A DNA stretch of 64,000 nucleotides from contig OX597820.1 in the NCBI GenBank assembly GCA_951406725.2, positions 47,926,001 to 47,990,000 on the forward strand, given 5' to 3'. Position 1 is the stretch's first letter; every line of letters begins with the position of its first letter. Position numbers and translations under genes: made by a program. This document shows positions 1,091-62,299 of this stretch, piece after piece. Under the pieces are notes generated by a model. The model was not told the origin of the DNA. It was given only the letters and a program-made list of their open reading frames with translations, and did no database searches. This stretch comes from Octopus vulgaris (Eukaryota).

Positions 1091-1267
1091 TAAGTACTAT
1101 ATATAGTGGTAGGAAATGGCAGCCTGATATTTGTTAGAAAGCACGTCAGAATGGGCAATAGAAGACTATATGGAAAACCGACACCCAAAGTATTGAATAG
1201 TTCTAATGACTGGAACGCGGAAATTGATGTGTTGAAATTTTTTTGTATTTTTCAAGCGATATCGGTT

Positions 1268-1478
1268 TCAAATTTTGCCAAAAGACAACAGTTTTGGGTA
1301 AGGGGAAAGTCCATTATATCGACGTCAGTACTGGACTTGTAACTTATTTTATATCACTTCGAAAGGGTGAGAGGCTAAGTTGACTACGGCGGAATTTGAA
1401 CTCAAAACGTAAAGACGGACGAAATGTCGCTAAGCACTTTGCCCGGCGTACTAAGGATTTTGGCTGCTGGCTGGCCTA
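1268..1478 (-). mobile_element. SINE C, older short-tail subfamily (diverged)
   Basis: Matches the SINE C core GAGTTCAAATTCCGCC...GTCGACTT found in the other copies. Confidence 0.8.
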
Positions 1479-7202: not shown

Positions 7203-7529
7203 AGTGGAGGCGCAATGGCCCAGTGGTTAGGGCAGCAGACTCGCGGTCATAGGATCGCGATTTCGATTCCCAGACCGGGCGTTGTGAGTGTTTATTGAGC
7301 GAAAACACCTAAAACTCCACGAGGCTCCTGCAGGGGATGGTGGTGATCCCTGCTGTACTCTTTCACCACAACTTTCTCTCACTCTTACTTCCTGTTTCTG
7401 TTGTACCTGTATTTCAAAGGGCTGGCCTTGTCACTATCTGTGTCACGCTGAATATCCCCGAAAACAGACGTGTCTATGGAGTGCTCAGCCACTTACACGT
7501 TAATTTCACGTGCTTCATGTACTTCCATC
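7203..7529 (+). mobile_element. SINE head A + tail 1 (internal deletions)
   Basis: A/B boxes; near-identical to 14415 and 26587; flanking CATACAACATC at 7192-7202 and 7530-7540. Confidence 0.92.
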
Positions 7530-7721: not shown

Positions 7722-7950
7722 ACGAGCTGGCAGAATCGTTTGCACGCCGGGCGAAATGCGTAGCCGTATTTCGTCCGTCGTTACGTTGTGAGTTCAAATT
7801 CCGCCAAAGTCGACTTTGCCTTTCATCCTTTCGGGGTCGATAAATTAAGTACCGGTTATGCACTGGGGTCGATGGAATCGACATAATCCGTTTGTCTGTC
7901 CTTGTTTGTTCCCTCAGTGTTTAGCCCCTTGTGGGTAGTAAAGAAATATA
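7722..7950 (+). mobile_element. SINE C with Tx1-like 3' tail
   Basis: CGAGCTGGCAGAATCGTT...GTCGACTTTGCCTTTCATCCTTTCGGGGTCGATAAATTAAGTACC...TTTAGCCCCTTGTGGGTAGTAAAGAAATA. Confidence 0.92.
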
Positions 7951-8297: not shown

Positions 8298-8508
8298 TTT
8301 TTTACTCTTTTACTTGTTTCAGTTATTTGACGGCGGCCATGCTAGAGCATCGTCTTTAGTCGACCAATTTGACACCAGGATTTATTCTTTGTAAGCCTAC
8401 TACTTATTCTATCGGTTCCTTTTGCCGAACCGCTAAGTCACGGGGACATAAGCACACCACCATCGGTTGTCAAGCGATGTTGGGGGCAGAAACACAGACA
8501 CACAAACA

Positions 8509-8598
<90 letters not shown>

Positions 8599-8772
8599 TA
8601 TATATATATACATATATACAACGGGCTTCCTTCAGTTTCGGTCTACCAAATCCACTCACAAGGCTTTGGTCGGCTCGAGGCTATAGTAGAAGACACTTGT
8701 CCAAGGTGCTACGCAGTGGGAATGAACCCGGAACTATGTGGTTGGTAAACAAACTACTTACCACACAGCCAC
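8298..8772 (-). mobile_element. Full-length SINE B with internal (TA)n(TG)n microsatellite
   Basis: Minus strand GTGGCTGTGTGGTAAG head, CCTTGGACAAGTGTCTT CORE-like segment, microsatellite, and tail ending CATGGCCGC...AACTGAAACAAGTAAAAGAGTAAAA. Confidence 0.92.
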
Positions 8773-8969
8773 TTGTACAATATATGATAATAGGTTGGTT
8801 CGTTTGCTATATTGTCATATAGCGTGTCGGCAAAAAGTACCCCAAAGTATAAGTACCAGAGTAAAACAATACTGAGATGGATTTCATCAGCATAACGCTT
8901 CGAAGCGATGCCCGACATGATATGATGGAAACAAGTAAAAGAATAAGAAAAATGTATGCACGTCGCTCA

Positions 8970-12021: not shown

Positions 12022-12194
12022 ACTCTTTTACTCTTTTACTTGTTTCAGTCATTTGACTGCGGCCAATGCTGGAACACCCCAGGACTTATTCTTTGTAAGC
12101 CTAGCACTTATTCTATCGGTCTCTTTTGCCGAACCGCTTAGCATCTGTTGTCAAGCGAAGTTGGGGGACAAACACAGACACACAAACACACACA

Positions 12195-12280
<86 letters not shown>

Positions 12281-12440
12281 CATATATACGACGGGCTTCT
12301 TTCAGTTTCCGTCTACCAAATCCACTCACAAGACTTTGGTCGGTCCGAGGTTGTAGTAGAAGACACTCGCCCAAGGTGCCACGCAGTGGGACTGAACCCG
12401 GAAGCATGTGATTCTGAAGCAAGCTACTTGCCACATAGTC
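12022..12440 (-). mobile_element. SINE B with internal (TG)n
   Basis: Head, CORE-like segment and tail match 8298-8772. Confidence 0.9.
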
Positions 12441-14359: not shown

Positions 14360-14414
14360 TCGTCATCGTCGCTGGTTTCGTCGCCGTACTAATCTTAATG
14401 TTTAGTTTTTTTTA

Positions 14415-14788
14415 TGGCCCAGTGGTTAGGGCAGCGGACTCGCGGTCGTAGGATCGCGGTTTCGATTCCCAGACCGGGCGTTGTGAGTGTTTATTGAGTG
14501 AAAACACCTAAAAGCTCCACGAGGCTCCGGCAAGGGATGGTGGTGATCCCTGCTGTACTCTTTCACCACAACTTTCTCTCACTCTTACTTCCTGTTTCTG
14601 TTGTACCTGTATTTCAAAGGGCCGGCTTTGTCACTCTCTGTGTCACGCTGAATATCCCCAGAACTACGTTAAGGGTACACATGTCTGTGGAGTGCTCAGC
14701 CACTTACACGTTAATTTCACGAGCAGGCTGTTCCGTTGATCGGATCAACCGGAACCCTCGTCGTCGTAACCGACGGAGTGCTTCCACC
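14415..14788 (+). mobile_element. SINE head A + tail 1
   Basis: A/B boxes; AATGTTTAGT repeated at 14397-14406 and 14789-14798 (probable TSD). Confidence 0.93.
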
Positions 14789-15194: not shown

Positions 15195-15674
15195 TTCTTC
15201 TTCCGATCAGGACTCACGCCATTAGCCACAAAGAATAATCTCTAATTCGAACCTACTCTAAGCTACTAAGAATGCGTGTGGCAACTTGAAGATCCACCGA
15301 CCACACGCGATAGACGGGCGGTTGCAAGGGCGCGAAAGCTACGTTGTTATCCTCATTCCATAAACGGTGGCTTTTAACGAGTGGAGAGCTGAACCATCCT
15401 GGGGTACAGAGGATTCGAAATCTAGACTAGAGTCTGAAAGTTTACCAAACCAGAGTGGGTTACACCATGGTTCCTCTGCGTTGTGACAAAAGTAGGTAGA
15501 AAGAATGAGAGAAAATTGTGGTGAAAGGGTAGAGCGGGGTTCACACCCCTCCGCCGGAGACTCGTGGAGCTTAGGAGTTTTTGCTCAATAAACACAATGC
15601 CCGGTCTGGGAATCGAAACCGCGTTCTTACGACCGCAAGTCCGCTGCCCTAACTACTGGGCCATTGCGCCTCCA
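15195..15674 (-). mobile_element. SINE head A + long unrelated tail 3 ending in (GAA)n
   Basis: Head A at 15500-15674. Minus-strand continuation ends GGCGTGAGTCCTGATCGGAAGAAGAAG; the tail boundary is inferred. Confidence 0.7.
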
Positions 15675-15857
15675 CTCTTGTTGTTGCTGTACATGACAGT
15701 CGTTATTTTAGTTATTACTGTAGATGTGACTATTACTTTTGATTTTCTTATTATCTTTTCTTTGAATCATTAGACTGCTGCCATGCTGGGGTACCGCCTT
15801 GCAGAATTTTGTTCACTACATTACCGCTGTTGTTATTACTTCGATTATTCTTATTCC

Positions 15858-16125
15858 TCCGAGGCGACTTTGCCTCGGATCCTTTCGGGGTCGATAAATT
15901 TAAGTACCAGTGAAACACTGGGGTCGACGTAATCGACTAATCCCCTCCCCCAAAATTTCAGGTCCTGTGCATTTACTAGAAAGGATTAGTACCTGTATTC
16001 TTATTCCGACGGGGTTGACTTCCCCTTCAATCCTTTCAGGGTCGATAAATTGAGTACCAGTGAAACACTGGGGTCGATGTAATCGACTACGCGCCTCCCA
16101 CAAAATTTAAGGCCTATAGCAGAAA
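15858..16125 (+). mobile_element. Two tandem 5'-truncated SINE C copies (short tail)
   Basis: CCTTTC.GGGTCGATAAATT..GTACCAGTGAAACACTGGGGTCGA occurs twice. Confidence 0.85.
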
Positions 16126-16359
16126 GAAATTATTACTTATATTCTTTTTATTCTCGCTGTTGTTTTTGTTATTGTTTTGACGTAAAATTGTTGCCGTTGT
16201 TATTGTTGGTTTTCGTGTTATTCATGATATTGGCGTTGTTGTTGTTATTTTTATTGTTGGTGACGCTGCTATTGTTGTTGCTGTTGTTGTTTTCACGTGC
16301 GATTATCGCAATCGGTGTTGTTTTTGTAATTGTTGTTGTTATTGTTGCTGTTGCTGTTG

Positions 16360-18874: not shown

Positions 18875-19272
18875 TATTTTATGTTTCAGTCATCAGACTG
18901 CGGCCATCCTGGAGCACCAGCTTGAATCTTCAGTCGAATGAATCTGCCCCAGTATCTAGCTTTAAAGCCTGTTACTTATTCTATCAGTCTATTTTGCCGA
19001 ACTGCTATGGAGACGCAAACACCCATATCGTTGACAAGCGGTAGTGGGGGGCTAACACAAGCACAAAGACACACATAAATACAGACGCACACACGCATGC
19101 ACACTTACACGCACACACACACATATGTATATATAGACAATGGGCTTCTCTCAGTTTCCGTCTACTAAATCCACTTACAACATTTTGGTCGGCTTGAGGC
19201 TAAAATTGAAAACACTTGCCCAAGTTGCCATGCAGTGGATCTGAACCCTGAACCATGTGGTTGGGAAGCAAA
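18875..19272 (-). mobile_element. SINE B (diverged)
   Basis: Same head/internal repeat/tail organisation. Confidence 0.85.
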
Positions 19273-20335: not shown

Positions 20336-21627
20336 TGTGTTACGGCAGAGAAAGAAAATGTAGATGTTGCCACGACTGCTGCCAGACCCAAAAGGGCCAG
20401 TAGGCGGCTAAGCGGTCACGTGAGAAGAGAAGAGAGAGGAAAAGAGGAACAAAGGAATTAAGGAGGGGAAGATGAGAGAGAAAAAGAGGAACAACGGAAT
20501 TAAGGAGGAGAAGAGAGAGAAAAAGAGGACCTTAGCTGTTTCTGTTCCACTACTATAACTTCTTTTTTTTGCCAAATAAACGCATGCGCGATATATTTGT
20601 TCTTCCCTCGATCTTATTCACTGTCCTTATTCTAACTCATGTCCATTTTCCGGAAATCTTTAGTCACACATCTATGACCTCTTCAACGACACTATTCATC
20701 TTCGTGTGTACTCTTGCTCCACTTACTCTATTCTGTTCTTTTATGTTGTGTAATCTTATATGCGCATGCTTTTGTATCTCTCTGTTACTGTATGTGTGTT
20801 TGTGTGTGTATATGGGTTCGCTTCATATGTTTGTATCAGTGCCGCTTATACAGTATTATATTTATATATATATATTTTTTAATCTATCTCTATTTCTTAT
20901 GTTTATCATAAGTATGTGCATATTTGTCCATTGTGTGTATATTACACAACATGAGGGAAACAACGGTACAGGAGTAAGAGGAGGGAGAGAAGATCCTCAA
21001 TGCTCATATGGAGCAAAAAAGCGCACGGCTAACAATTCCAGTAACGATATCCCAGCACTGCATGGGCTCCGCAACGACCATAAGGCGACCACTGACCCAG
21101 TGACAGGATCACCTACCTACTTCCTCTCTATGAGCGTACGCCCTCTGATCAAAATGTCCCCAGATGTTTGTGGCATCACAGAGGACCTTCTTAGTAGAAT
21201 CACTGAATGCAACCATGCCCACGACCTGACGGGATGCATAATAGGCATTATAGCCATCCACTGATGTTTATTTTGCTGTGGAGAAAGGTCTGGAAGTGAT
21301 CGGCGAGAGCGACGTGGTGTTTCGTGGTGTTGACACAGAAAAACTGGGCCTCCTCTTCAGATTGACTTGTGACAATGATTACTTAGATAAATATCACCTT
21401 AGTTGTTTCTGTGTGTTTGTGTATTATGTATGATGCAAGTCATTACATTGTCGCTAAATCTGTTTGAAATATCCCGCAAAGAACACCTACTCCCTTACGG
21501 GCAAAACTTATCGAGAGTGACGTAATAAACAAGTCACCAAGGGAAAGTCCTCATCGAAGTCAATTAGTAATTAGTGATGCTGTTTAAATCTCATTTCTCT
21601 TCTAATTGCTGAGCATAAATATAATAC

Positions 21628-22044
21628 CTATTTATTTACCACCCACAAGGGGCTAAATACAGAGGGGACAAACAAGGACAGACAAACGGATTAAGTCGAT
21701 TTCATCGACCCCAGTGCATAACTGGTATTTAATTTATCCACCCCGAAAGGATGAGAGGCAAAGTCGACCTCGGCGGAATTTGAACTCAGAACGTAACGGC
21801 AGACGAAATACCTATTTCTTTACAACCCACAAGGGGCTAAACACAGAGGGGACAAACAAGGACAGACAAACGGATTAAGTCGATTATATCAACCCCAGTG
21901 CGTAACTGGTACTTATTTAATCGACCCCGAAAGGATGAAAGGCAAAGTCGACCTCGGCGGAATTTGAACTCGGAACGTAACAGCAGACGAAATACAGCTA
22001 CGCATTTCACCCGGTGTGCTAACGATTCTGCCAGCTCGCCGCCT
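21628..22044 (-). mobile_element. SINE C dimer (Tx1-like tails) with 18-bp TSD
   Basis: TGAGCATAAATATAATAC at 21610-21627 and 22045-22062; one full and one 5'-truncated unit. Confidence 0.95.
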
Positions 22045-22537
22045 TGAGCATAAATATAATACTATGGGTTTCTGGCCCAGCACGAAGAACCTAACTGAAA
22101 CTTGGGAAGAAGGGATATTAATAACAAATTGAATGAACTTATCACAAATAATTCTGCACGATATTTTCAATATGACACTGGGATGAGTAAAAGACATGAG
22201 ATTCACTGCAACTCTTTACAACATCTTTCTACAATTCTCTTAACAACTTATCTCTCCAATTTTGAAGGTGCGAAAATTTCTCACAATGTATATTTTTCTG
22301 CAGAAGATTCATGCTAGAATGCTATTAAGAGAACCAGAAGGTATTCAGTTTGCTCTTATTAAGTGATTCTTGCTTCACTCACATGCATTTATGCATTTAT
22401 ACATGCATGCATACATAGACAGAGACAACCATGAATGAACATCTATATTTCTATATATAAATATATATATACATTCATTACAGGCGTATAAGCTTACATG
22501 TATGTATGTATGGATGTATGTATATGTATGTATGTAA

Positions 22538-26586: not shown

Positions 26587-26977
26587 GGATGGTATGGAAG
26601 CACTCCGTCGGTTACGACGACGAGGGTTCCGGTTGATCCGATCAACGGAACAGCCTGCTCGTGATATTAACGTGTAAGTGGCTGAGCACTCCTCAGACAC
26701 GTGTACCCTTAACGCAGTTTTCGGGGATATTCAGCGTGACACAGAGAGTGACAAGGCCGGCCCTTTGAAATACAGGTACAACAGAAACAGGAAGTAAGAG
26801 TGAGAGAAATTTGTGGTGAAAGAGTACAGCAGGGATCACCACCATCCCTGCCGGAGCTTCGTGGAGCTTTAGGTGTTTTCGCTCAATAAACACTCACAAC
26901 GCCCGGTCTGGGAATCGAAACGGCGATCCTACGACCGCGAGTCCGCTGTCCTAACCACTGGGCCATTGCGCATCCAC
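26587..26977 (-). mobile_element. SINE head A + tail 1, full length
   Basis: 13-bp TSD ATAATAGGTTTCT at 26574-26586 and 26978-26990. Confidence 0.95.
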
Positions 26978-27149
26978 ATAATAGGTTTCTATACACAAAA
27001 TGAATCTCAATAATGTTGTGTTGTTACACTGAATGTTTTGTCAAACTTCAGAGCTGCTGTGAACCAATTTTTTTTTCAAAGCTGAGTTTCTCCTGATTCA
27101 TGGTAGCTTGAAATTTTTGTTTGCCCAACAACGTGTATATATATACATA

Positions 27150-27318
27150 TATACGACGGGCTTCTTTCAGTTTCCGTCTACCAAATCCACTCACAAGGCT
27201 TTCGTCGACCCGAGGCTACGGTAGAAAACACTTGCCCAAGGTGCCACGCAGTGGGACTGAACCCGGAACCATGTGGTTGGTAAGCAAGCTACTTACCACA
27301 CAGCCACTCCTACGCCTA
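27150..27318 (-). mobile_element. SINE B 5' half
   Basis: GGCGTAGGAGTGGCTGTGTGGTAAGTAGCTTGCTTACCAACCACATGG...CCTTGGGCAAGTG. Confidence 0.92.
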
Positions 27319-28992: not shown

Positions 28993-29224
28993 CGGCGAGC
29001 TGGCAGAAACGTTAAGCACGCCGGGTGAAATGCGTAGCCGAATTTCGTCTGCCGTTACGTTCTTGAGTTCAAATTCCGCCGAGGTCGACTTTGCCTTTCA
29101 TCCTTTCGGGGTCGTTAAATTAAGTACCAGTTACGCACTGGGGTCGATGTAATCGACTTGATCCGTTTGTCTGTCCTTGTTTGTCCCCTCTGTGTTTAGC
29201 CCCTTGTGGGAAATAAAGAAATAT
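28993..29224 (+). mobile_element. SINE C with Tx1-like tail, full length
   Basis: Near-identical to the 7722 and 21812 copies. Confidence 0.93.
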
Positions 29225-30624: not shown

Positions 30625-31155
30625 TATAAGGCAAATAAGAAAATGGACAGAATAAATAATCGACACACATCAAACAGTAAACATTCAATTATATCTATTA
30701 AATAATTAATTACAAACATATGTGTAAGTGATCCGAGTAAACGAATGAAATAAGCTAATAGATAGGTAAACATACACACACACTGACATATATATATATA
30801 TATATATATGAATAATAATAGATGAGTGTACAAATGCTAAACTCTTACAGCCGTTTCTACCATGACACTGCCAAATGTTCCAAGTTATCCTCATCACGTC
30901 AGTGATATACAGGGATTAGCAAACATTGGACAGGGATTGGACAATGGTTGAGCCCAAAGGCTTCTTCAGAGAGTGCAAATGTTAGGAAACTAATACGTGG
31001 GAAAGTAAGTTAAAATAATAGAGTCAGATAAAATAAAAATAAAAATAAAAGTAATGTAATAGAAATAGTAAGGGATGGTAAGAATTTCATTTGAAGGTGC
31101 TCTTATAGAAACGGCCGTAAGAGTTCAGTATTTGTATACTCATCTATTATTATTC

Positions 31156-31213
<58 letters not shown>

Positions 31214-31357
31214 TTACGTATCTATCGGCTTATTTCTTTCGTTTACTTGGATCACTTAACATATGTTTGTAATCAGTTGATAAATAGATATAACTGAATG
31301 TTTACTAGCTGATGTGTATCGATTATTTATCCTTTCCATTTTCTTATTTGCCTTATA
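30625..31357. mobile_element. Inverted repeat (~240-bp diverged arms), Penelope-like inverted pLTR arrangement
   Basis: 30625-30860 is the reverse complement of 31105-31357; both inner ends carry GAAACGGC(C/T)GTAAGAG. Confidence 0.75.
30841..30974 (-). ncRNA. Type I hammerhead-like motif with very long stem II
   Basis: Minus strand ACUCU-CUGAAGA-AGCC...~105 nt foldback...GGUA-GAAA-CGGCUG-UA-AGAGU. Confidence 0.6.

Positions 31358-32148: not shown

Positions 32149-32218
<70 letters not shown>
31815..32218. repeat. (GATA)n array followed by an inverted (TATC)n array
   Basis: Directly visible. Confidence 0.95.
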
Positions 32219-33490
32219 ACCCGTTAAAAGGAGGGCTGGGCATGCCGTGGTTGATGATGCGCAGACACGCGCTGAGACTGCGACATCTCTGGCTCTATGT
32301 AGACGACGGTGAACAGGTGTGGTCGCCGTTTGTGAGGCACGCTTTCCCGCAGCTCGTCTCCATGACCGAACTGCAGTCGTGGATCAAAAAGAGGCCGAAG
32401 AAAGGCGAATGGCACCGCGAGTGTCGCGTTGCTCTCAAGCAACTCTGCCGTCCTGGGTCGACCTTGAGTGACTTCAACACAACCAAAGCATTCTATAGGG
32501 GTTTAGTGGAGGGGAGGTACGACGACGAGCTCGGGGCGAACCTGGACGTCGACGAGGAGTACCTGACCCGCCTGTTCAGGACGACTTTCGGGCCAGGGCC
32601 CATGGACAACTTCCAGAGATCCCTGGCCTGGCAGTGCTACCGAGAAGCGCTACCCGTTCGGGATAAGCTCTACAGACACGGCTCGAGAAACACGGGGCCG
32701 ACCTGCCTGAGATGCGGTCAGAGCGACGAAACCGTTCTGCACGCACTCGTGCAGTGTCCAACAATTTCCGACCTGTGGGCTTGTGTCGAACAACTGCTGT
32801 CACGTGTGGGACGAGTCGGTTTATCAGCTGAGTCTATCGTCAATATTGTCACGCCTCCTTCCTTCAAACGGGAAGGAAGAGCTATTTTCATCATCCTTGT
32901 GGCTATGGCGAAAGAATGTATCTGGTGGACGCGTCTGAAAGGATTGGAGACAAACACTTTCCTCTCTGGTCAATCTCTCATCAACTTCTTCAAGTACCAC
33001 TTGAAAAGGAAAGTGAGAGTAGAGAGGCAAGTTTTGTCTAGCGAATGTTTTAAAAAAAGATGGGTGAATGTAGCAAGAATGGCACGTATGAATGACGAAG
33101 CCACCTTGAGCATGATCCTATGAACCCAGAAATTGAAAACAGAGAGTTGCTTATTCGCAAAAAAAAAAAAAAAGAAATATAACATGTGACTCCATTGACC
33201 GAGGTTACCGTGGTCTTTTCCGTAGGCTTTTCTTTCCACGGGTAAACCTCACCTGTCCTCCCCTTTACACTTCATATTGACATTTCTGTGATAACGATCC
33301 CTATTGATCAATTTTTTTTTCCTCTCCCCCTTTTTTTTAACCCCCTTTTTTTGTCCCCTTTCTCTCCTTTTACGATCCCTTTTGATCGAAACTCCCCCTT
33401 TCCTTTTTTTTTTTTAAACCTTCAAAAGAAAAGCTCTACCTTGTAATTTGTTCTATCTGTGTGCAGCCCTGTGTGGCTAATAAAGAAACA
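32218..33490 (+). mobile_element. 5'-truncated L1/Tx1-clade non-LTR retrotransposon: ORF2 C-terminus + 3' UTR
   Basis: Uninterrupted ~300-codon frame to the stop at 33121-33123. Contains HPLKGGLGMP and a zf-RVT-like LAWQCYREALPVRDKL...CLRCGQSDETVLHALVQCP. T/C-rich 3' UTR ends AATAAAGAAACA. Flanked on both sides by (TATC)n. Confidence 0.9.
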
Positions 33491-33504
33491 TATCTATCTA
33501 TCTG

Positions 33505-33632
<128 letters not shown>

Positions 33633-33789
33633 CCTGCCTACCTACGAATGTATGTATGTATGTATGTATGTATCTATCTATCTATCTATCTATCTATCTA
33701 ACTATGCAACTGTCTGTTTGTCTGTCTATCTACACTCGTGTTACAATCCGTGAGACTACGACACAAGTGGACAGTGAACTCCGTGCATT

Positions 33790-37973: not shown

Positions 37974-38340
37974 GCGGCGATCTGGCAGAATTGTTAGCAC
38001 ACTGGGCGAACTGTTTAGTGGCAGTTGGTTCGTCTTTAGGTCCTGAATTCAAATTCTGATAAAATAAGTGTTAGTTGAACACTAGGATCGATATATTCGA
38101 CTTACTCCCATCCCAGAAATTAACGGCCTGGAGCCAGAATTTGAAACCATTATTTGTGCCGAGAGCTGGCAGAAGCGTTAGCACACGAGCATGTCGTCTC
38201 TTTACTTTCTGAATTCAAATTCTGACATTGCCTTTCATTCTTTCGAGTCCTATGAAATAAATGCCAGTTGAACATCTTGTCGATGAGATCGACCTACCCT
38301 GCCCCCAAAATTGCTGGCCGTATGACAAAATTCGAAACGT
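37974..38340 (+). mobile_element. Two tandem old SINE C copies (short tail)
   Basis: CTGGCAGAA..GTTAGCAC...GAATTCAAATTC...AAATT..AAAC occurs twice. Confidence 0.75.
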
Positions 38341-38495
38341 CATGTGTGTAACATGAGTGGGATCTATGTGTGTGGTTGTATGCGTTTCTACGTAGGTCTG
38401 TATGATTGTGTTATCGTGTTGTATATGTATGCATATATGTCCGCACCGACGTAGTGTATGTCCATATATAAGATAGACTACTTGTGTGTTTGCGT

Positions 38496-39305: not shown

Positions 39306-39344
39306 TTTTGGTGTGTGTTTATGTCTCTGTATGTATATATGTGT

Positions 39345-39630
39345 AGAGGCGCAATGGCCCAGTGGTTAGGGCAGTGGACTCGCGGTCGTAGGATCGCGGT
39401 TTTGATTCCCAGACCGGACGTTCAGAGTGTTTGTTGAGCAGAAACACCTAAAAGCTCCACGAGGCTCCGGCAGGGAAGGTGGTGGCGATCCCTGCTGTAC
39501 CCTTTCGCCCACTCTTTCTTCTGTTGGCCTGCTCGCTTAGCCAGCGGGGTGGCGTCATTTGAAGGCAAAAACAATGCGAAGCGATGTGTAGCAACATCTG
39601 ATAGTCTGGCCGGTCACGTAATCACGTGAT
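39345..39630 (+). mobile_element. SINE head A + tail 2
   Basis: Matches 775-1090. Confidence 0.9.
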
Positions 39631-48030: not shown

Positions 48031-50027
48031 CTTTCTATATACGTAACAATCCATTTACTTTAAACAAGACTTTATATATTTCCAAAAAAATGTTTAGAAT
48101 ATATTCAATATGACTTCCTTTATTAGAAGAGCAGTGAACGATAATAGAGTAGCAGTGGTTATTTACTGCCAGAACGAAAACGATGAAATAATTGTCGAAT
48201 ACAAGAAAACAAATGTAAGGAAAATAAACAAAATTCACAACACAGAAACAATGACAACGAAATAGATTCACTCATAAACACAAGTAATCACATTTTCACA
48301 CCCCCAGAAAATGCACAATTTCATAACATAATCAAATGTAACAACAGCATCAACAATAATAATAGTCGAATTTAACAAAAAATAAACAATAATTCTAATT
48401 TCACAATTTTGTTTTGAACAATACGAAATAGTGTTCCAACAATTTTTCGCTAATGTCACCATAATAGAAATGGAATAAATATATATGGTATATCAGAGAA
48501 AATAATCTTCAGGGAAATATGAAGAAAAGAAACGCTTCCCTTATCTGAGGTCCTTATCCAAATGAGAGCAAAGCGGAAAGTTCCTATTTTCCAAATCTTC
48601 TATGTTCTCAAAATCCTCTCTTAATACTCTTAGTGCAAAAAATGGAGGGAGCTCTGACAAATTGAGTATGAGACGAGAATGTATCATACATTTGCTCATA
48701 GACTTGTGACATAATTCATACGTGATGCAGCTCGAGAGTTATAATGAAAAACATATTAGATAATATTGCACCCCGGTTTATCGCCGGGAAAGGCAAAGGA
48801 GGAGATAAAGCAATAAACAGTAATAAGAGGAGGTGTTAGAGAATGCTGTTTCTAGAGTACGTCTTGACACACCACTGTTTGCAACGCCGGTGATAGCCAA
48901 CACAAAAAAAGAAAAATCGTTTCACCATCGGTTTAAGCGCCCACTTCGCTTCAATATCCAACACCACCATATCATAAGAGGTATTGGGGAAAAGATGAAC
49001 TACAAATAATAATGTAACTCCATCGATAGCAGCGGATAAAGTAAGAAAATAAATGCAAAATCCTTTAACGAGTTTATCCAAATAAAATGTAAGCAAAATG
49101 TTTTGGATAAGCCATCTCCTCATGAAAACGTGTTGTTTATAGGATTTCGTAGGACAGGCAGCCAATTGATGAGCAATGTACACCAGTAGTCCTTAAACTG
49201 ACAATAACTGTGCCTCTTGCCAATAAAAAACCTAATAAGTGAAATTTTTACTCCACTTTTCTTTGTTTATTAGAAAACACAATAGAGATTACATCGATGT
49301 AATTCTTCCTTTGCTGCAGAGTGGGAGAGCTTTAAAAGGTTTAAAACAAACTTAATTCTACTAAACATGGGTATTTATCCGACCCGTTTCCAATCCCGAT
49401 AAGAGCAGGGTCTGTCCAACGGAACCGTGTCTGTGTTATAAGAAACGATGATGTAAAAGGTTTGTAATAAAATCTACCGAAAAACCAAAAGCAGACTTGT
49501 GAGAAGAAGGGCTCCAATTCGGTAGAGCAACGAAAAGATAAACTTTTGGAGATACACCACCTTATAAGGCTTGGAACTGATCTGATTTATTTATCATTAA
49601 GACGCAGGTTTTTCCTCTCCTATTCTGACATACAAGATGATCAACCATGATCGACTATTTTCATTAATTGGTTGCATGCAGAGTACATGGAAACAAAGAA
49701 ACCAGTTTATAGGCTGCTGGTAAAACCAGATCATAGCTTCTCATCGAATACGTGGCGCAGTTACCCTAATTCGTTTATATTTCCTTTCCTTCATTTGTAT
49801 TTATGTATATATGCGTACTTTGTCTAATTTATCAGTTTACCAAAATTTTGATTTACCCTAACATTGTATAACATTTGTCTGCATCGTTTTTTTATATGTA
49901 ACTGTGTTTGTACGTCTCCTAACCTCTTGTAAACTTGTTTTTTTTTGTAAGATACATGTCAATGCAGAATTTGATCATTACCAACAATTAAATAAAATAA
50001 TTGCCGTTATTATTACGATTATGAAGA

Positions 50028-50910
50028 AGGCGGCGAGCTGGCTGAATTGTTAGCACGCCGAGCAAAATGCTTAGCGGTTTACGATCTGAGTTCAAATTCC
50101 ACTGTGGTCGACTTTGCCTTTCTTCCTTTCGGTGTCGATAAAATAAGTACCAGTTGAACACTGGGGTCGATGTAACCGTCTCATCCCCACCTTCCCATGC
50201 TACCCTTGTGGCAAACATTTGAATTAATTATTATTATGATTATTAAGAAGGTGGAGAGGTGGCAGAATCTTTAGTACGCCGGACAAAATGCTTAGTGGCA
50301 TTTCGTTCGTCTTTACCATCTGAATTCAAATTACGCCGAGGTCGACTTTGCCTTTCATCCTTTAGGGGTGGATAAATTAAGTACCAGTGAAACACTGGGC
50401 TCAACGTGATCGACTAGTCCTCTCCCTCAAAATTTCAAGTTTTGTACCTATAAATTAATTATTATTATGATTATTAAGAAGGTGGAGAGGTGGCAGAATC
50501 GTTAGCACGCCGAGTGAAATACTTAGCAGTATTTCGTCTGCCGTTACGTTGTGAGTTCAAATTTCGCTGAAGTCGACGTTGCCTTTCATCCTTTCGGGGT
50601 CGATAAATTAAGTACCAGTTACGCACTGGGGTCGATGTAATCGACTTAATCCGTTTGTCTGTCCTTGTTTGTCCTCTCTGTGTTTAGCCCCTTGTGGGAA
50701 ATAAAGAAATAAGAATCGTTAGGACGCCGAGAAAAATGCTTAGTGGCATTTCATCCGTCTTTGCAATCTGAGTTCAAATTCAGCCGAGGTCGACTTTGCC
50801 TTTCATCCTTTCGGGTTCGTTAGAATAAGTACAAGTCGAACACTGGGGTCGATATAATCGACTCATTCTCACTTCCTCCAAGCTGCCCTTGTGGCAAAAA
50901 ATTGAAACAA
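50028..50910 (+). mobile_element. Cluster of four SINE C units, one Tx1-tailed copy apparently nested in another's head
   Basis: Repeated core; AGAATCGTTAG duplicated at 50495-50505 and 50712-50722. Confidence 0.9.
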
Positions 50911-52584
50911 TGTTAATGATAATAATAATAATCATGATTGTTATTATTATTATTATTAACTATTGAATGTCATGTACTATTTAACCATGTCACTTTACAT
51001 TATCATACGAAATACTACAACAATAATAAAAGGATAAAGTGCACAACATCTGATAATGTTGTGAAAAAATTACCCTTTATTCACCTGCTGCCGAAGATAT
51101 AACTACTGAAGAGAATTAAGTCATTCCTATAATTCGCTATTTGTTGATCGAATGATTCTTTATGAAGTTAGCTGATTCAAGTAGCAAATTACACGTAGAT
51201 TTTGGTCCCGTATTTTAAACGTAATTTATTTGATGCTATACATAGAAAGCTAAACCATTTGTGCATTTTAAAACTTCATTATGAATTACGCTGTTTATCC
51301 TTATTTTGGTGTCTATTCTGATTAATTATTATCTCTCTAGTGTTTTATATGACTATATCTAGAGATCCTATCATTATAGGTATTACAGTTATCTTCTCAG
51401 AGATCTCGTATTTGCAATATTTCGCTTCATAATTAATATACAACATAATACGTAGTATTCTCAAATATCATAATATCAGTTATCTCACATTTGTCTGATC
51501 TTTCTTTTTTCCCTACAACAATATCAGGTCTTGTACAATTTATCTATTTATACCATCGTAGTATTTGCTGGTGTTTAGTCTCAGGTCGACTTAATTGAAT
51601 AGTCCTTTGATCAAATGTATTCTATGTATGATCATGTTGGGTTTGTATTCACTTAGTACAGTTGTATATATGGCTATATTATCTAAAGTGCCTTTTGTAT
51701 TATTAAAACGATAGTCTATGATTTGGTGTAGATATGTCTTTTGTTTCTGTTAAGTCGTTCGACCTTATACATGTTTCACTGTTAGTTTGTCTAACGATAG
51801 CAAAGTCCCAAATGATTCATAATATTTCATACACTTTTGATTCATTTCTTGATAGTACAGTACAGGATATCGAGTCAACAAATTCTTTGCAACATCTACA
51901 ACCTGATCACAGATAAATTTCTGCTATTACTCTTTGAGCTAGTAATAGCTAGATAATCTACTAAACTTCTGACATTTTATAGTAGCGTTGCCTAGCCGGG
52001 GTTCTCAGGATCTCTATCTCTCTGCAAGAGGTTGCAGAGGTTTCGTGTTAAATACTGATAAATAGATGAAATATATGCGAACGTAGTTTTATTTCATTTT
52101 TATGCATAATTATATATTCATAGTTTTATTATACGCAAATGGCATCTCTCTTTAGGAAGGGCAGCCTCTAGTGAGAATGTCCTCTTGAATGGAAATTGTA
52201 TAAGAAATTGGCCTAAACCTGTTGGTAGTTGAGTAGAAATGTCTCCAACCTTATTTGTGGCGTCTAACGGATATAGCATTACAAAATATTTCAAATGTAG
52301 TAATATGCATTGTTCAATCTTTTATTACGTTTAACTTTATCAACTTAAAAAAAGGAGTAATCAACATAACCATGTGTATAACATTTCTTACCTAAATGTA
52401 AAAGGATAGTTGTAACATTTGGTCTCGGAGTAAACTTCTCGAACTCCAACAATTCGTTATAAATTTTGAAGAATAATATGGGGATTGATGATGCAGTTAT
52501 ACTATTTAAAGAAACCTTTTTATTCTGATTACCTCTCTTGCATTAAATCTCTGTCTGTCTATTTCTCTGTTTGTCTTTCTGTCC

Positions 52585-57705: not shown

Positions 57706-57832
57706 AAGTAGCTTGCTTACCAACCACATAGTTCCAGGTTCAGTCCCACTGCGTGACACCTTCTACTATAGCCTCGGGCCGACCAAAGCTATGTGAGTGG
57801 ATTTGGCAGACGGAAACTGAAAAAAGCCTGTC

Positions 57833-57885
<53 letters not shown>

Positions 57886-58042
57886 GTGTGTATGTTTGTG
57901 CGTCTGTGTTTGTCCCTCCAACATCGCTTGACAACCGATGCTGGTGTGTTTACGTCCCCGTAATTAGCGGTTCGGCAAAAGGTACCGATAGAATAAGTAC
58001 TAGGCTTGCAAAGAATAAGTCCTGGGGTCGATTTGCTCAGTC
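57706..58042 (+). mobile_element. Remainder of the interrupted SINE B (5' stub at 55643-55668)
   Basis: Continues CAACCACATAGTTCCAGGTTCAGTCCCACTGCG, then (TA)n and the tail. Confidence 0.92.
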
Positions 58043-59017: not shown

Positions 59018-59388
59018 TTTGTTTCAGTCATATGACTGTGGCCATGCTGGAGCACCGTCTTTAGTCGAGCAAATCGACTACAGGACTTATTCTTTGTAAG
59101 CCTACTACTTATTCTATCGGTGCCTTTTGCCGAACTGTTAAGTTACGGGGACGTAAACACACCAGCATTGATTGTCAAGCGATGTTGGGGGACAAACACA
59201 GACACACGAACATATGCACACACACGACGGGCTTCTTTCAGTTTTCGTCTACAAAGCCCACTCACAAGGCTTTGGTCGGCCCGTGGCAATAGTAGCAGAC
59301 ACTCGCCCAAGTTGCCGCACAGTGGGGCTGAACCCGGAACCATGTGATTGGTAAGCAAGCTACATACTACACAGCCACTCCTGTGCCT
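59018..59388 (-). mobile_element. SINE B with minimal, unexpanded internal repeat
   Basis: Full head and tail with only ~20 nt of CA-rich linker. Confidence 0.92.
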
Positions 59389-60923: not shown

Positions 60924-60984
<61 letters not shown>

Positions 60985-60989
60985 TAATA

Positions 60990-61325
60990 ATGGTTTCAAA
61001 TTTTGCTATAAGGCCAGCAGTTTAGGGAGTTACGGTTAAGTCGACTACATTGACCCCAGTGCTTATTTCATCGATCCCGAAAGGAGGAAAGGCAAAGTGA
61101 GCCTCGGCGGAAATTGAATTCAGAAGGTAAAGACGGACAAAACGCTGCAAAGTATTTGTCCGGCGGGATAACGATTCTGCCTATTTTGGCAAAAGCCCGC
61201 ACTTTTGAGGTGGGTGGGGTGTAAGTCAATTACATCGATGCCAGTAATTGGTTGTTACTTATTTTATGAACTTCAAAAAGATGAAAGAAAAACCTAAACT
61301 CGACGGAACTTGAACTCAGAACATA
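60990..61325 (-). mobile_element. Two tandem old SINE C copies
   Basis: CCCGAAAGGAGGAAAGGCAAAGT...CTCGGCGGAA...AACGATTCTGCC. Confidence 0.8.
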
Positions 61326-62299
61326 ATGAGTTTGAAAAATGACATTGGACCTTTTTATTCATCTCCATAATAATTTTGTTTGTTCGCCTCTTCAGTTAGT
61401 CCGGGAAAAAACGTGCTTACATTCTCAGTATACACACATGGAGGCTTTCTATTGCATAAAGTATGTTTCAATTATGATAAACGCTTTGTCTTGTATACAC
61501 GCACGTACACACACACACACACACATATATATATGTACAGAAAGCTACAAACAGATAAATAAATATATACAGACGTATGAATGTGTGTATGTGTGTATAC
61601 ATGTATGTGTGTATGTATACATATGTTCATAAGCACATGTTTGTCTCATGTCGTTTGGCGTTACATTAGTTTTTGCAGTAATCAATTAGACTGTTATAAG
61701 GAAAATTTTTCTTTGTAATAGAAGTACTCCTTAGAGAAAAAGCTACTAATTACTAACCCAGGAGGAAAAAAAATGAAATTCTGGTTGATTTGAAAACAAA
61801 ACAAATATTAGCCAGACTTACTGGCATAATTTGATAATAAAATTTTCCACCTGGATGAGTTCGCTGGTGAAAGCTAATGTCACTCTAGTTTTTCTCTACA
61901 GAAAAGTATGCCCTCATATCACCACGACGGTATATGAACAAGTTACTCTTTAGGGATATAGGCGACTGTGCTTAATTTTGCGACGTAGTTTCAATTTGAT
62001 TAAACATGTCGAATATCGTGAAGTCCATGCCTGGTTATAGATTGTAGATTACAGTCGGTTTGGTATTCGAATTTCACGAGCAAAAAGAAATACTTGCATG
62101 CTTGAAGTGCATGTCTTTTAGCATGTAAGTGCGACATTCCTACAACTTATGCCAACACGAGAAAATTTGAGGATTTATGTTTTCAGTCGAACACATATAA
62201 ACTAGTATATTCCTTTATACTTGTGACATAGCTCCATTTCGTACAAACGTTGCTACTTCCTATACTTTTCAAAATCTATATACAGTTCAAATGGAATTT

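Follow-up and report, generated by a model that had tools for sequence, protein, structure and literature searches.

A 3' terminus common to an L1-group, probably Tx1-like LINE family and a young SINE subfamily of octopus, with older SINE tails matching a sister LINE clade

The LINE, its flanks and its relatives

The window analysed here is a 64-kb stretch of octopus DNA, and the sole LINE piece found within it is a 5'-truncated element at 32218..33490 (+), which belongs to the L1 group and is likely Tx1-like; it was found by tblastn with protein P0003 (67% over 301 aa). What remains of ORF2 is its C-terminal 300 aa (32218..33123, +), open to a TGA stop at 33123 and bearing a zf-RVT zinc finger (PF13966, E 2.6e-8); EN and most of RT are missing from this copy. 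The 3' UTR of 367 nt (33124..33490, +) has no poly(A) tail and closes with a terminal segment, 33439..33490 (+), that recurs at the end of young SINE copies and has an ungapped core at 33447-33488. Within this segment lies a predicted hairpin of a 4-bp stem and a 6-nt loop (33465..33478, +), directly followed on the 3' side by AATAAA (33479-33484) and then GAAA. The element is flanked by (TATC)n microsatellite on its 5' side (32149..32218, +) and its 3' side (33491..33705, +), the latter being entered by other LINE copies as well.

The preliminary description had assigned this LINE to the L1/Tx1 clade. Protein comparison bears out the L1 group, in the wide sense: among solved structures P0003 scored best with human L1 ORF2p (174 bits), with R2 at 88, and no CR1, L2 or RTE protein was among the matches, while in a separate search its residues 140-627 scored 256 bits with L041, a more distant relative, and 242 with a zebrafish 'pol-like protein', as against 174 for human L1. 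APE endonuclease, RT and zf-RVT domains were all found in LINE relatives; proteins named as Tx1 or L1 do not occur among the matches listed. The closest named relatives are those of Argonauta hians and Octopus bimaculoides. A quick tree, which has neither an L1 outgroup nor a named Tx1 element and in which the window row fills 25% of columns, joins the window LINE with four close relatives, including that of Argonauta (support 100), and makes this group sister to a seven-member clade that includes L024 (support 100). ORF1 of L024 has the CCHC knuckle PF00098 and no other family at its cut-off; a CCHC zinc knuckle in ORF1, instead of the vertebrate L1 ORF1 domains, is a Tx1 trait. Judged by zf-RVT, the P0003 scores, the domains of the relatives and the tree, Tx1 membership of the window LINE is likely.

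The (TATC)n on both sides, a repeat that makes up 1.9% of the window, points to a target preference, a feature of the Tx1 clade. The more distant relative, at L041:4240-4534, has a poly(A) end and runs on into a 5S rRNA gene, beginning near its base 21; this 5S-targeting element is on a contig binned as Fusobacteriaceae, and the 5S rRNA gene is among the Tx1 targets listed in PMC4494074.

The LINE family is abundant, and O. vulgaris has 80 L1-Tx1 families in all. About 13,700-51,000 contigs match it per sequencing run, with likeness to the window copy from below 90% to above 99%, and the stretch is present in 20 of the 24 sequencing runs listed (four organism labels and one small share). Summed contig depth over the tail is about as high as over ORF2, which is a hint only, as depth is no copy number. 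Metagenome and viral collections yielded no relatives of the window LINE, and a tail-pattern search of the same collections gave two loci, both of them chance matches in which all else is unlike.

Other observations concern the surroundings of the LINE and its protein relatives. The window is microsatellite-rich animal DNA. Inverted repeats at 30625-30769/31214-31357 (88%) and 30810-30859/31106-31155 (92%) delimit a MITE-like element of about 730 bp between (TA)n tracts (30625-31357). One interspersed family, 82-96% alike, occurs at 900-1090, 7204-7513, 14414-14786, 15486-15684, 26595-26978 and 39342-39613, and a two-part family with a microsatellite between its halves at 8315-8773, 12076-12438, 18882-19271, 27155-27313, 57706-58036 and 59020-59382. 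The O. bimaculoides model P0005, named 'rho guanine nucleotide exchange factor 10-like', has a first stretch of about 45 aa that is 83% identical to the LINE ORF2; this start would be either a mis-annotation or an exonised LINE fragment.

SINE copies and the terminus common to LINE and SINE

A SINE-body profile search of the window gave 20 matches; with three weak ones (E 0.013-0.36) dropped, 17 clear copies remained, five young and 12 old. Body likeness is 91.5% for the young copies and 73% for the old, and six body columns separate the two groups. A/B box-like motifs in the SINE head were seen by eye only, ARAGORN found no tRNA gene and Rfam gave no match at E up to 10. The window SINE may resemble Deu/Nin-domain SINEs in its central part; tRNA-Deu is a main octopus SINE class, at 60.9 Mb in O. 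vulgaris.

The young copy at 28993..29223 (+) is near full length, with its tail at 29159-29223, and that at 7723..7948 (+) is followed by (AT)-rich DNA; neither has a target duplication. Two others form a dimer on the reverse strand: the 3' end of 21812..22044 (-) joins the next copy's head at about base 53 (GTATTT), and the 3' flank of the second unit, 21628..21811 (-), starts with GTATT. Identical 18-mers at 22045-22062 (5' copy) and 21610..21627 (-, 3' copy) form the target-site duplication of the dimer, which (21610-22062, -) arose either by insertion into another copy's head or by template switch between two SINE RNAs. The fifth young copy, 50506..50711 (+), is inside an older SINE's head, between two 11-mers (50495-50505 and 50712-50722).

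Among the old copies, that at 50712..50910 (+) has a hairpin at 50884-50896, that at 1254..1471 (-) has a decayed hairpin tail, and two tandem copies at 37975..38349 (+) have hairpin tails; in another tandem pair, 60981..61329 (-), the first copy is joined to the second's head and the end is (ATT)n. The copy at 15792..15995 (+) and the fragment at 15986..16142 (+) share a tail type considered below. SINEs in the window cluster in tandem (50025-50958, 37975-38349, 60981-61329 and 15792-16142), with several of the joins at about base 11-14 of the next head.

The best local match of each young tail to the 367-nt UTR is the ungapped core 33447-33488, with 33, 32, 30, 34 and 33 of 42 nt identical. 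When the UTR was dinucleotide-shuffled 2000 times, no shuffle reached the score of four of the five copies, and 52 reached that of the copy at 21811. Shuffling of the last 66 nt gave 0, 4, 0, 0 and 0 of 2000 for the five copies. The 3'-terminal sequence common to the LINE family and the young SINE exceeds chance. A further CCTTGT aligns LINE to SINE across a 3-nt gap, and the 16 nt of the SINE upstream of the shared segment have no match to the UTR of the window LINE. The LINE end sequence quoted in the preliminary description is present at 33439-33490, and the similarity it reported stands up to the shuffled controls in four of five young tails. Its claim that the tails are collinear over about 50 nt to the terminus holds only with the 3-nt gap after CCTTGT, and not gaplessly throughout; the SINE tail it quoted is exact in one of five young copies, three of which lack AATAAA.

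A terminus seen in one LINE copy could be a SINE remnant that abuts it. Contigs placed on 33345-33512 came from four runs of four studies; the 32 listed pieces are the longest of about 19,860, so they are length-biased, and they favour copies resembling the reference. Seven of them span 33439 and have 31 or more letters to either side of it (five do so with 33447 taken as the join), and as they show 11-20 differences they represent other LINE copies. Another 20 start at 33421-33427, in LINE-only UTR that is absent from the SINE, and continue through the tail into the repeat; in this length-biased sample, 21 of the 32 run on into (TATC)n. Since diverged copies carry the join of LINE-only UTR to tail, the shared segment is the terminus of the LINE family and not a SINE remnant. 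That a remnant abuts this one copy, or that the match is fortuitous, is extremely improbable: the match is short and partly of low complexity, and one copy reached only 52/2000, but the same join occurs in diverged copies of four studies and four of the five SINE copies beat all shuffles.

Variation in the LINE family bears on its relation to the SINE. The SINE letter occurs as a LINE-family variant at 33452, 33454 and 33463, in 62%, 51% and 11% of summed depth (run X2). The SINE letters at 33464, 33470, 33471 and 33477, within the hairpin and next to it, are unlisted at 2%, although mapping bias to the reference may mask some variation, and the listed variants therefore come from LINE copies rather than SINE contigs. 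Loose contig ends before 33456 close with the four C's of the SINE, preceded by a LINE-like stretch. Behind 33493 there are 30 and 25 contigs with loose ends, some LINE members ending in unique AT-rich DNA and many in (TATC)n. AATAAA has no variant at 2% in the LINE family and varies in the SINE. A C at 33478, in 17% of summed depth (run X2), breaks the outer hairpin pair.

Older SINE tails, the sister LINE clade and the predicted hairpin

The older SINE copies had been described as having a different tail. This is true of primary sequence, as 11 of 12 old tails have no significant match to the window LINE end and the remaining one, that of 50712..50910, is matched or exceeded by 12 of 2000 shuffles; it is not true of anatomy, as the same small hairpin layout is kept. 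Most old tails share one layout, a 4-bp stem, a CTTGT-like loop, about 6 nt and GAAA.

Relatives of the LINE were fetched by protein similarity alone (42-45% to P0003), which gave 38 copies on contigs CAXXMW0100000xx (L003-L039, L044); they come from one record and few subfamilies and are not independent. The record is titled as an Arenicella MAG and contains 38 or more nearly intact L1/Tx1-like elements, arrayed head to tail at intervals of about 6.5 kb; its contigs are likely mis-binned eukaryote host DNA. No RNA gene or telomeric array was found beside the tandem copies in the loci scanned, and the SINE body was not found in this record. Each of the 35 sister-clade copies whose sequence is long enough ends with a C-rich tract, followed by an A-run, AGGC-CTNGT-GCC, then a second hairpin and AATAAA. 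The loop is CTTGT in 18, CTCGT in 13 and CTAGT in 4, and AATAAA lies at most 40 nt from the pentaloop hairpin, as in all 45 matches to the pattern. The second hairpin, noted in L004, L007, L013, L016, L024, L009 and L025, is longer, follows the pentaloop about 20 nt before AATAAA and varies in stem sequence among subfamilies with pairing kept; it is absent from the window LINE and SINE ends.

A profile of the 12 old tails, built before the sister-clade loci were seen, gave 40 matches in 364 kb, all on the sense strand and all at element ends; 30 fall at the end of the element itself and 10 at that of a neighbour. The best E was 0.0027, and the reversed control had no match. Five of the 35 sister-clade ends escaped the profile, which does not match the window LINE end or the young tails either. 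Taken singly, the old tails at 15938 and 16088 outscored 983-1000 of 1000 shuffles in comparison with each one of three relatives: the score was reached by 0, 0 and 1 shuffles for the copy at 15792..15995, whose tail best matches the sister-clade 3' end, and by 4, 0 and 17 for the fragment at 15986..16142, of the same tail type. Between six and eight of the 12 old tails have no match to a given relative's UTR at fewer than 50 of 1000 shuffles. The window LINE end and the five young tails show no significant sequence similarity to the relatives' UTRs, and it is therefore layout that links them to the sister clade.

Judged by these sequence matches, at least one old tail type is a 3' end of this LINE lineage. 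The direction would thus be from LINE to SINE with no need of a clade switch, and the partnership likely predates the young subfamily. The preliminary description had an old SINE, once served by another LINE clade, rejuvenated through capture of a Tx1 tail. Such a history is very unlikely. The dissimilarity of 11 of 12 old tails to the window LINE end would fit it, as would the (ATT)n at the end of several old copies and the abundance of Dong-R4, CR1 and RTE in Octopus vulgaris, as reported in the available text of PMC13282606. In 364 kb, however, the only matches of the old tails are to element ends in a sister clade belonging to the same lineage, and the layout is kept; a switch of the old SINE to this LINE group is thus not supported. 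The part of the proposal that gives the young subfamily a newer tail than the old copies does hold, and the events look like renewal of the tail within a long partnership, not a change of clade.

The transfer could also have run the other way, the young SINE supplying the LINE family with the terminal 50 nt. The window LINE family has a 6-nt loop and the young SINE a 5-nt one, which is the same as that of the old SINE, and the TG/TC-rich simple sequence upstream of the hairpin could have grown inside the SINE. Yet a record that lacks the SINE has hairpin and AATAAA at the ends of sister-clade LINEs, and AATAAA, invariant at 2% in the LINE family, is variable in the SINE, so that we regard this reversal as highly improbable.

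The 64-kb window has four occurrences of the motif of stem, loop, spacer and GAAA: one at the LINE end, two in young SINEs and one in an old SINE (the only exact fit among the 12 old copies); 3 Mb of random sequence gave no strict and 3-25 loose occurrences. Over 16 tails, three of whose rows are out of register in the MAFFT alignment, four named pairs were paired in 71.9% as against 52.7% when shuffled (0/500). All four stem pairs have changed on both sides, with a score of 0.465 against at most 0.238 with partners slid, although the hairpin was chosen by eye, post hoc and from related sequences, which inflates this control. Covariation is similar on the old tails and LINE relatives. Fold stability of the tails against shuffles was not significant at conventional levels in any case (z +0.59 to -1.95), and folds of 61-nt ends gave no shared significant structure. 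The shared stem-loop for which the preliminary description suggested folding is backed by covariation and by its end-specific position in the relatives, though not by stability above that of shuffles; covariation of the modelled hairpin is, taken alone, suggestive only.

A probable long partnership and its counterparts

We think it probable that the SINE is a long-term passenger of an L1/Tx1-like lineage, whose ends it resembles in old and young copies alike, copied by way of the predicted 3' hairpin. In stringent LINEs, as PMC4176376 and PMC3747384 describe them, ORF2p binds the 3' stem-loop and primes at the nick. By analogy, Pol III transcripts of the SINE would present the 3' hairpin, which ORF2p may recognise by its 4-bp stem and CUUGU-type loop, close to the RNA's end, at a distance of a few bases, and the SINE RNA would be copied into the genome through target-primed reverse transcription. 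The young subfamily would have arisen as the SINE gave up an older tail, of LINE origin, and took on the terminal ~50 nt of a newer family, perhaps by template switch or recombination.

Alternatively, the tail might be a LINE-derived relic, with a relaxed ORF2p and a hairpin that serves RNA 3'-end formation or stability. The hairpin is small and weak and stands just before AATAAA in all LINE ends seen, and most L1-clade elements are relaxed according to the accessible text of PMC3472496; against this, the SINE kept the hairpin with compensatory changes and lost AATAAA in three of five young copies and in old copies, and neither LINE nor SINE has, in the window, a poly(A) tail to recognise. We consider a relic quite unlikely.

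Within the favoured partnership, the young SINE is more likely to have been given its tail, and to be carried at present, by a sister family that has another target and a loop of 5 nt than by the (TATC)n family, because neither the (TATC)n context nor the 6-nt loop is common to the young SINEs. None of the five young SINE ends is within 587 bp of a (TATC)n array, whereas the window LINE lies inside one. Two of the five young copies are joined to the head of a SINE, and a third likewise starts at GTATT. The young SINEs and the window LINE family share no insertion signature, which counts against this family as the carrier but not against a stringent mode of action. A comparison of targets, suggested at the outset, brought out duplications of 11 and 18 bp in SINEs and no common (TATC)n context. 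In L2 elements the loop gives specificity (PMC4176376, in the part available). The (TATC)n family could itself be donor and carrier if SINE RNAs landed elsewhere, their 3' end being unable to pair with the microsatellite; identity of 71-81% to the very end, family variants shifted toward SINE letters and members that end in unique AT-rich DNA would suit this. It is nevertheless unlikely, given the fixed hairpin differences (a 6-nt versus a 5-nt loop), the 16 SINE nt preceding the shared segment, which are unlike the UTR, and the lack of young copies near (TATC)n.

A broader scenario, which we offer tentatively and would not quite put at even odds, is that an animal L1/Tx1 lineage kept stringent recognition of a CUUGU loop across ORF2s that are ~42% identical, and that the SINE tracked it by repeated tail replacement, each new tail tying the SINE to a family with another target, the SINE's own head included. 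If so, SINE subfamilies would form a fossil series of LINE 3' ends, and natural loop and stem variants would be at hand to study how specificity for RNA was lost in L1-type enzymes. The available portion of PMC4176376 poses the question whether the clade had stringent recognition ancestrally and mammals then lost it, which becomes testable on an abundant animal pair whose stems and loops vary naturally. A likely engine would also be named for the main octopus SINE class, tRNA-Deu, if the window SINE belongs there.

Shared tails are common where the partner is of the CR1, L2, RTE or I group (PMC3747384, PMC11481361, as far as their accessible text goes). The remark in the preliminary description that an L1-clade pairing is rarely reported was well founded, judging by the accessible sections of PMC3472496 and PMC3747384; those of PMC3472496 have three L1-clade shared-tail SINEs, in maize, sorghum and Chlamydomonas. 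A search of the open-access literature found neither a tail-sharing L1/Tx1 pair in animals nor a partner for octopus SINEs; Repbase, Dfam, SINEBase and Ohshima and Okada 1994, outside that scope, may record one. The kind of system is already well known, and what is added here is that old SINE tails match a sister LINE clade.

Several systems resemble the octopus pair in part. For ZfL2-1/ZfL2-2 and UnaL2/UnaSINE, the available text of PMC4176376 provides the model of the mechanism, with ORF2p on the 3' stem-loop and the loop as specificity; these pairs belong to the L2 clade and were shown by experiment, whereas the octopus pair is known here through its sequence. The crocodilian SINEU is thought to be mobilised by Tx1 (Tx1-Mar), with different Tx1 families at different sites, and the link there consists of shared targets and 5' heads, the SINEs bearing poly(A) and snRNA heads; the portion of PMC4494074 at hand mentions no 3' tail in common. 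From the same portion, Kibi in (TC)n, Koshi in (TTC)n and crocodilian Tx1 in (TTCC)n/(TTTC)n are likewise LINEs inside a simple repeat; the repeat is (TATC)n here, and that portion describes no SINE partner for those families. In mollusc conserved-domain SINEs one body likewise has several LINE-derived tails, by mosaic evolution, with CR1, CR1-Zenon, L2 and Nimb as partners and no L1/Tx1 group named in the available parts of PMC11481361, PMC4758252 and PMC4824008. The nearest counterparts are ZmSINE2/ZmSINE3 with LINE1-1_ZM (maize, sorghum) and SINEX-3_CR with L1-1_CR (Chlamydomonas), each of an L1-group LINE and a tRNA-type SINE in the accessible accounts of PMC3472496 and PMC3747384. As in those accounts, the last ~45-80 nt are common to LINE and SINE, and the hairpin has a variable, compensated stem and a conserved loop; unlike the plant and alga pairs, the octopus pair involves an animal and a target-biased, Tx1-like lineage without poly(A), from which both the old and the young tails would come.
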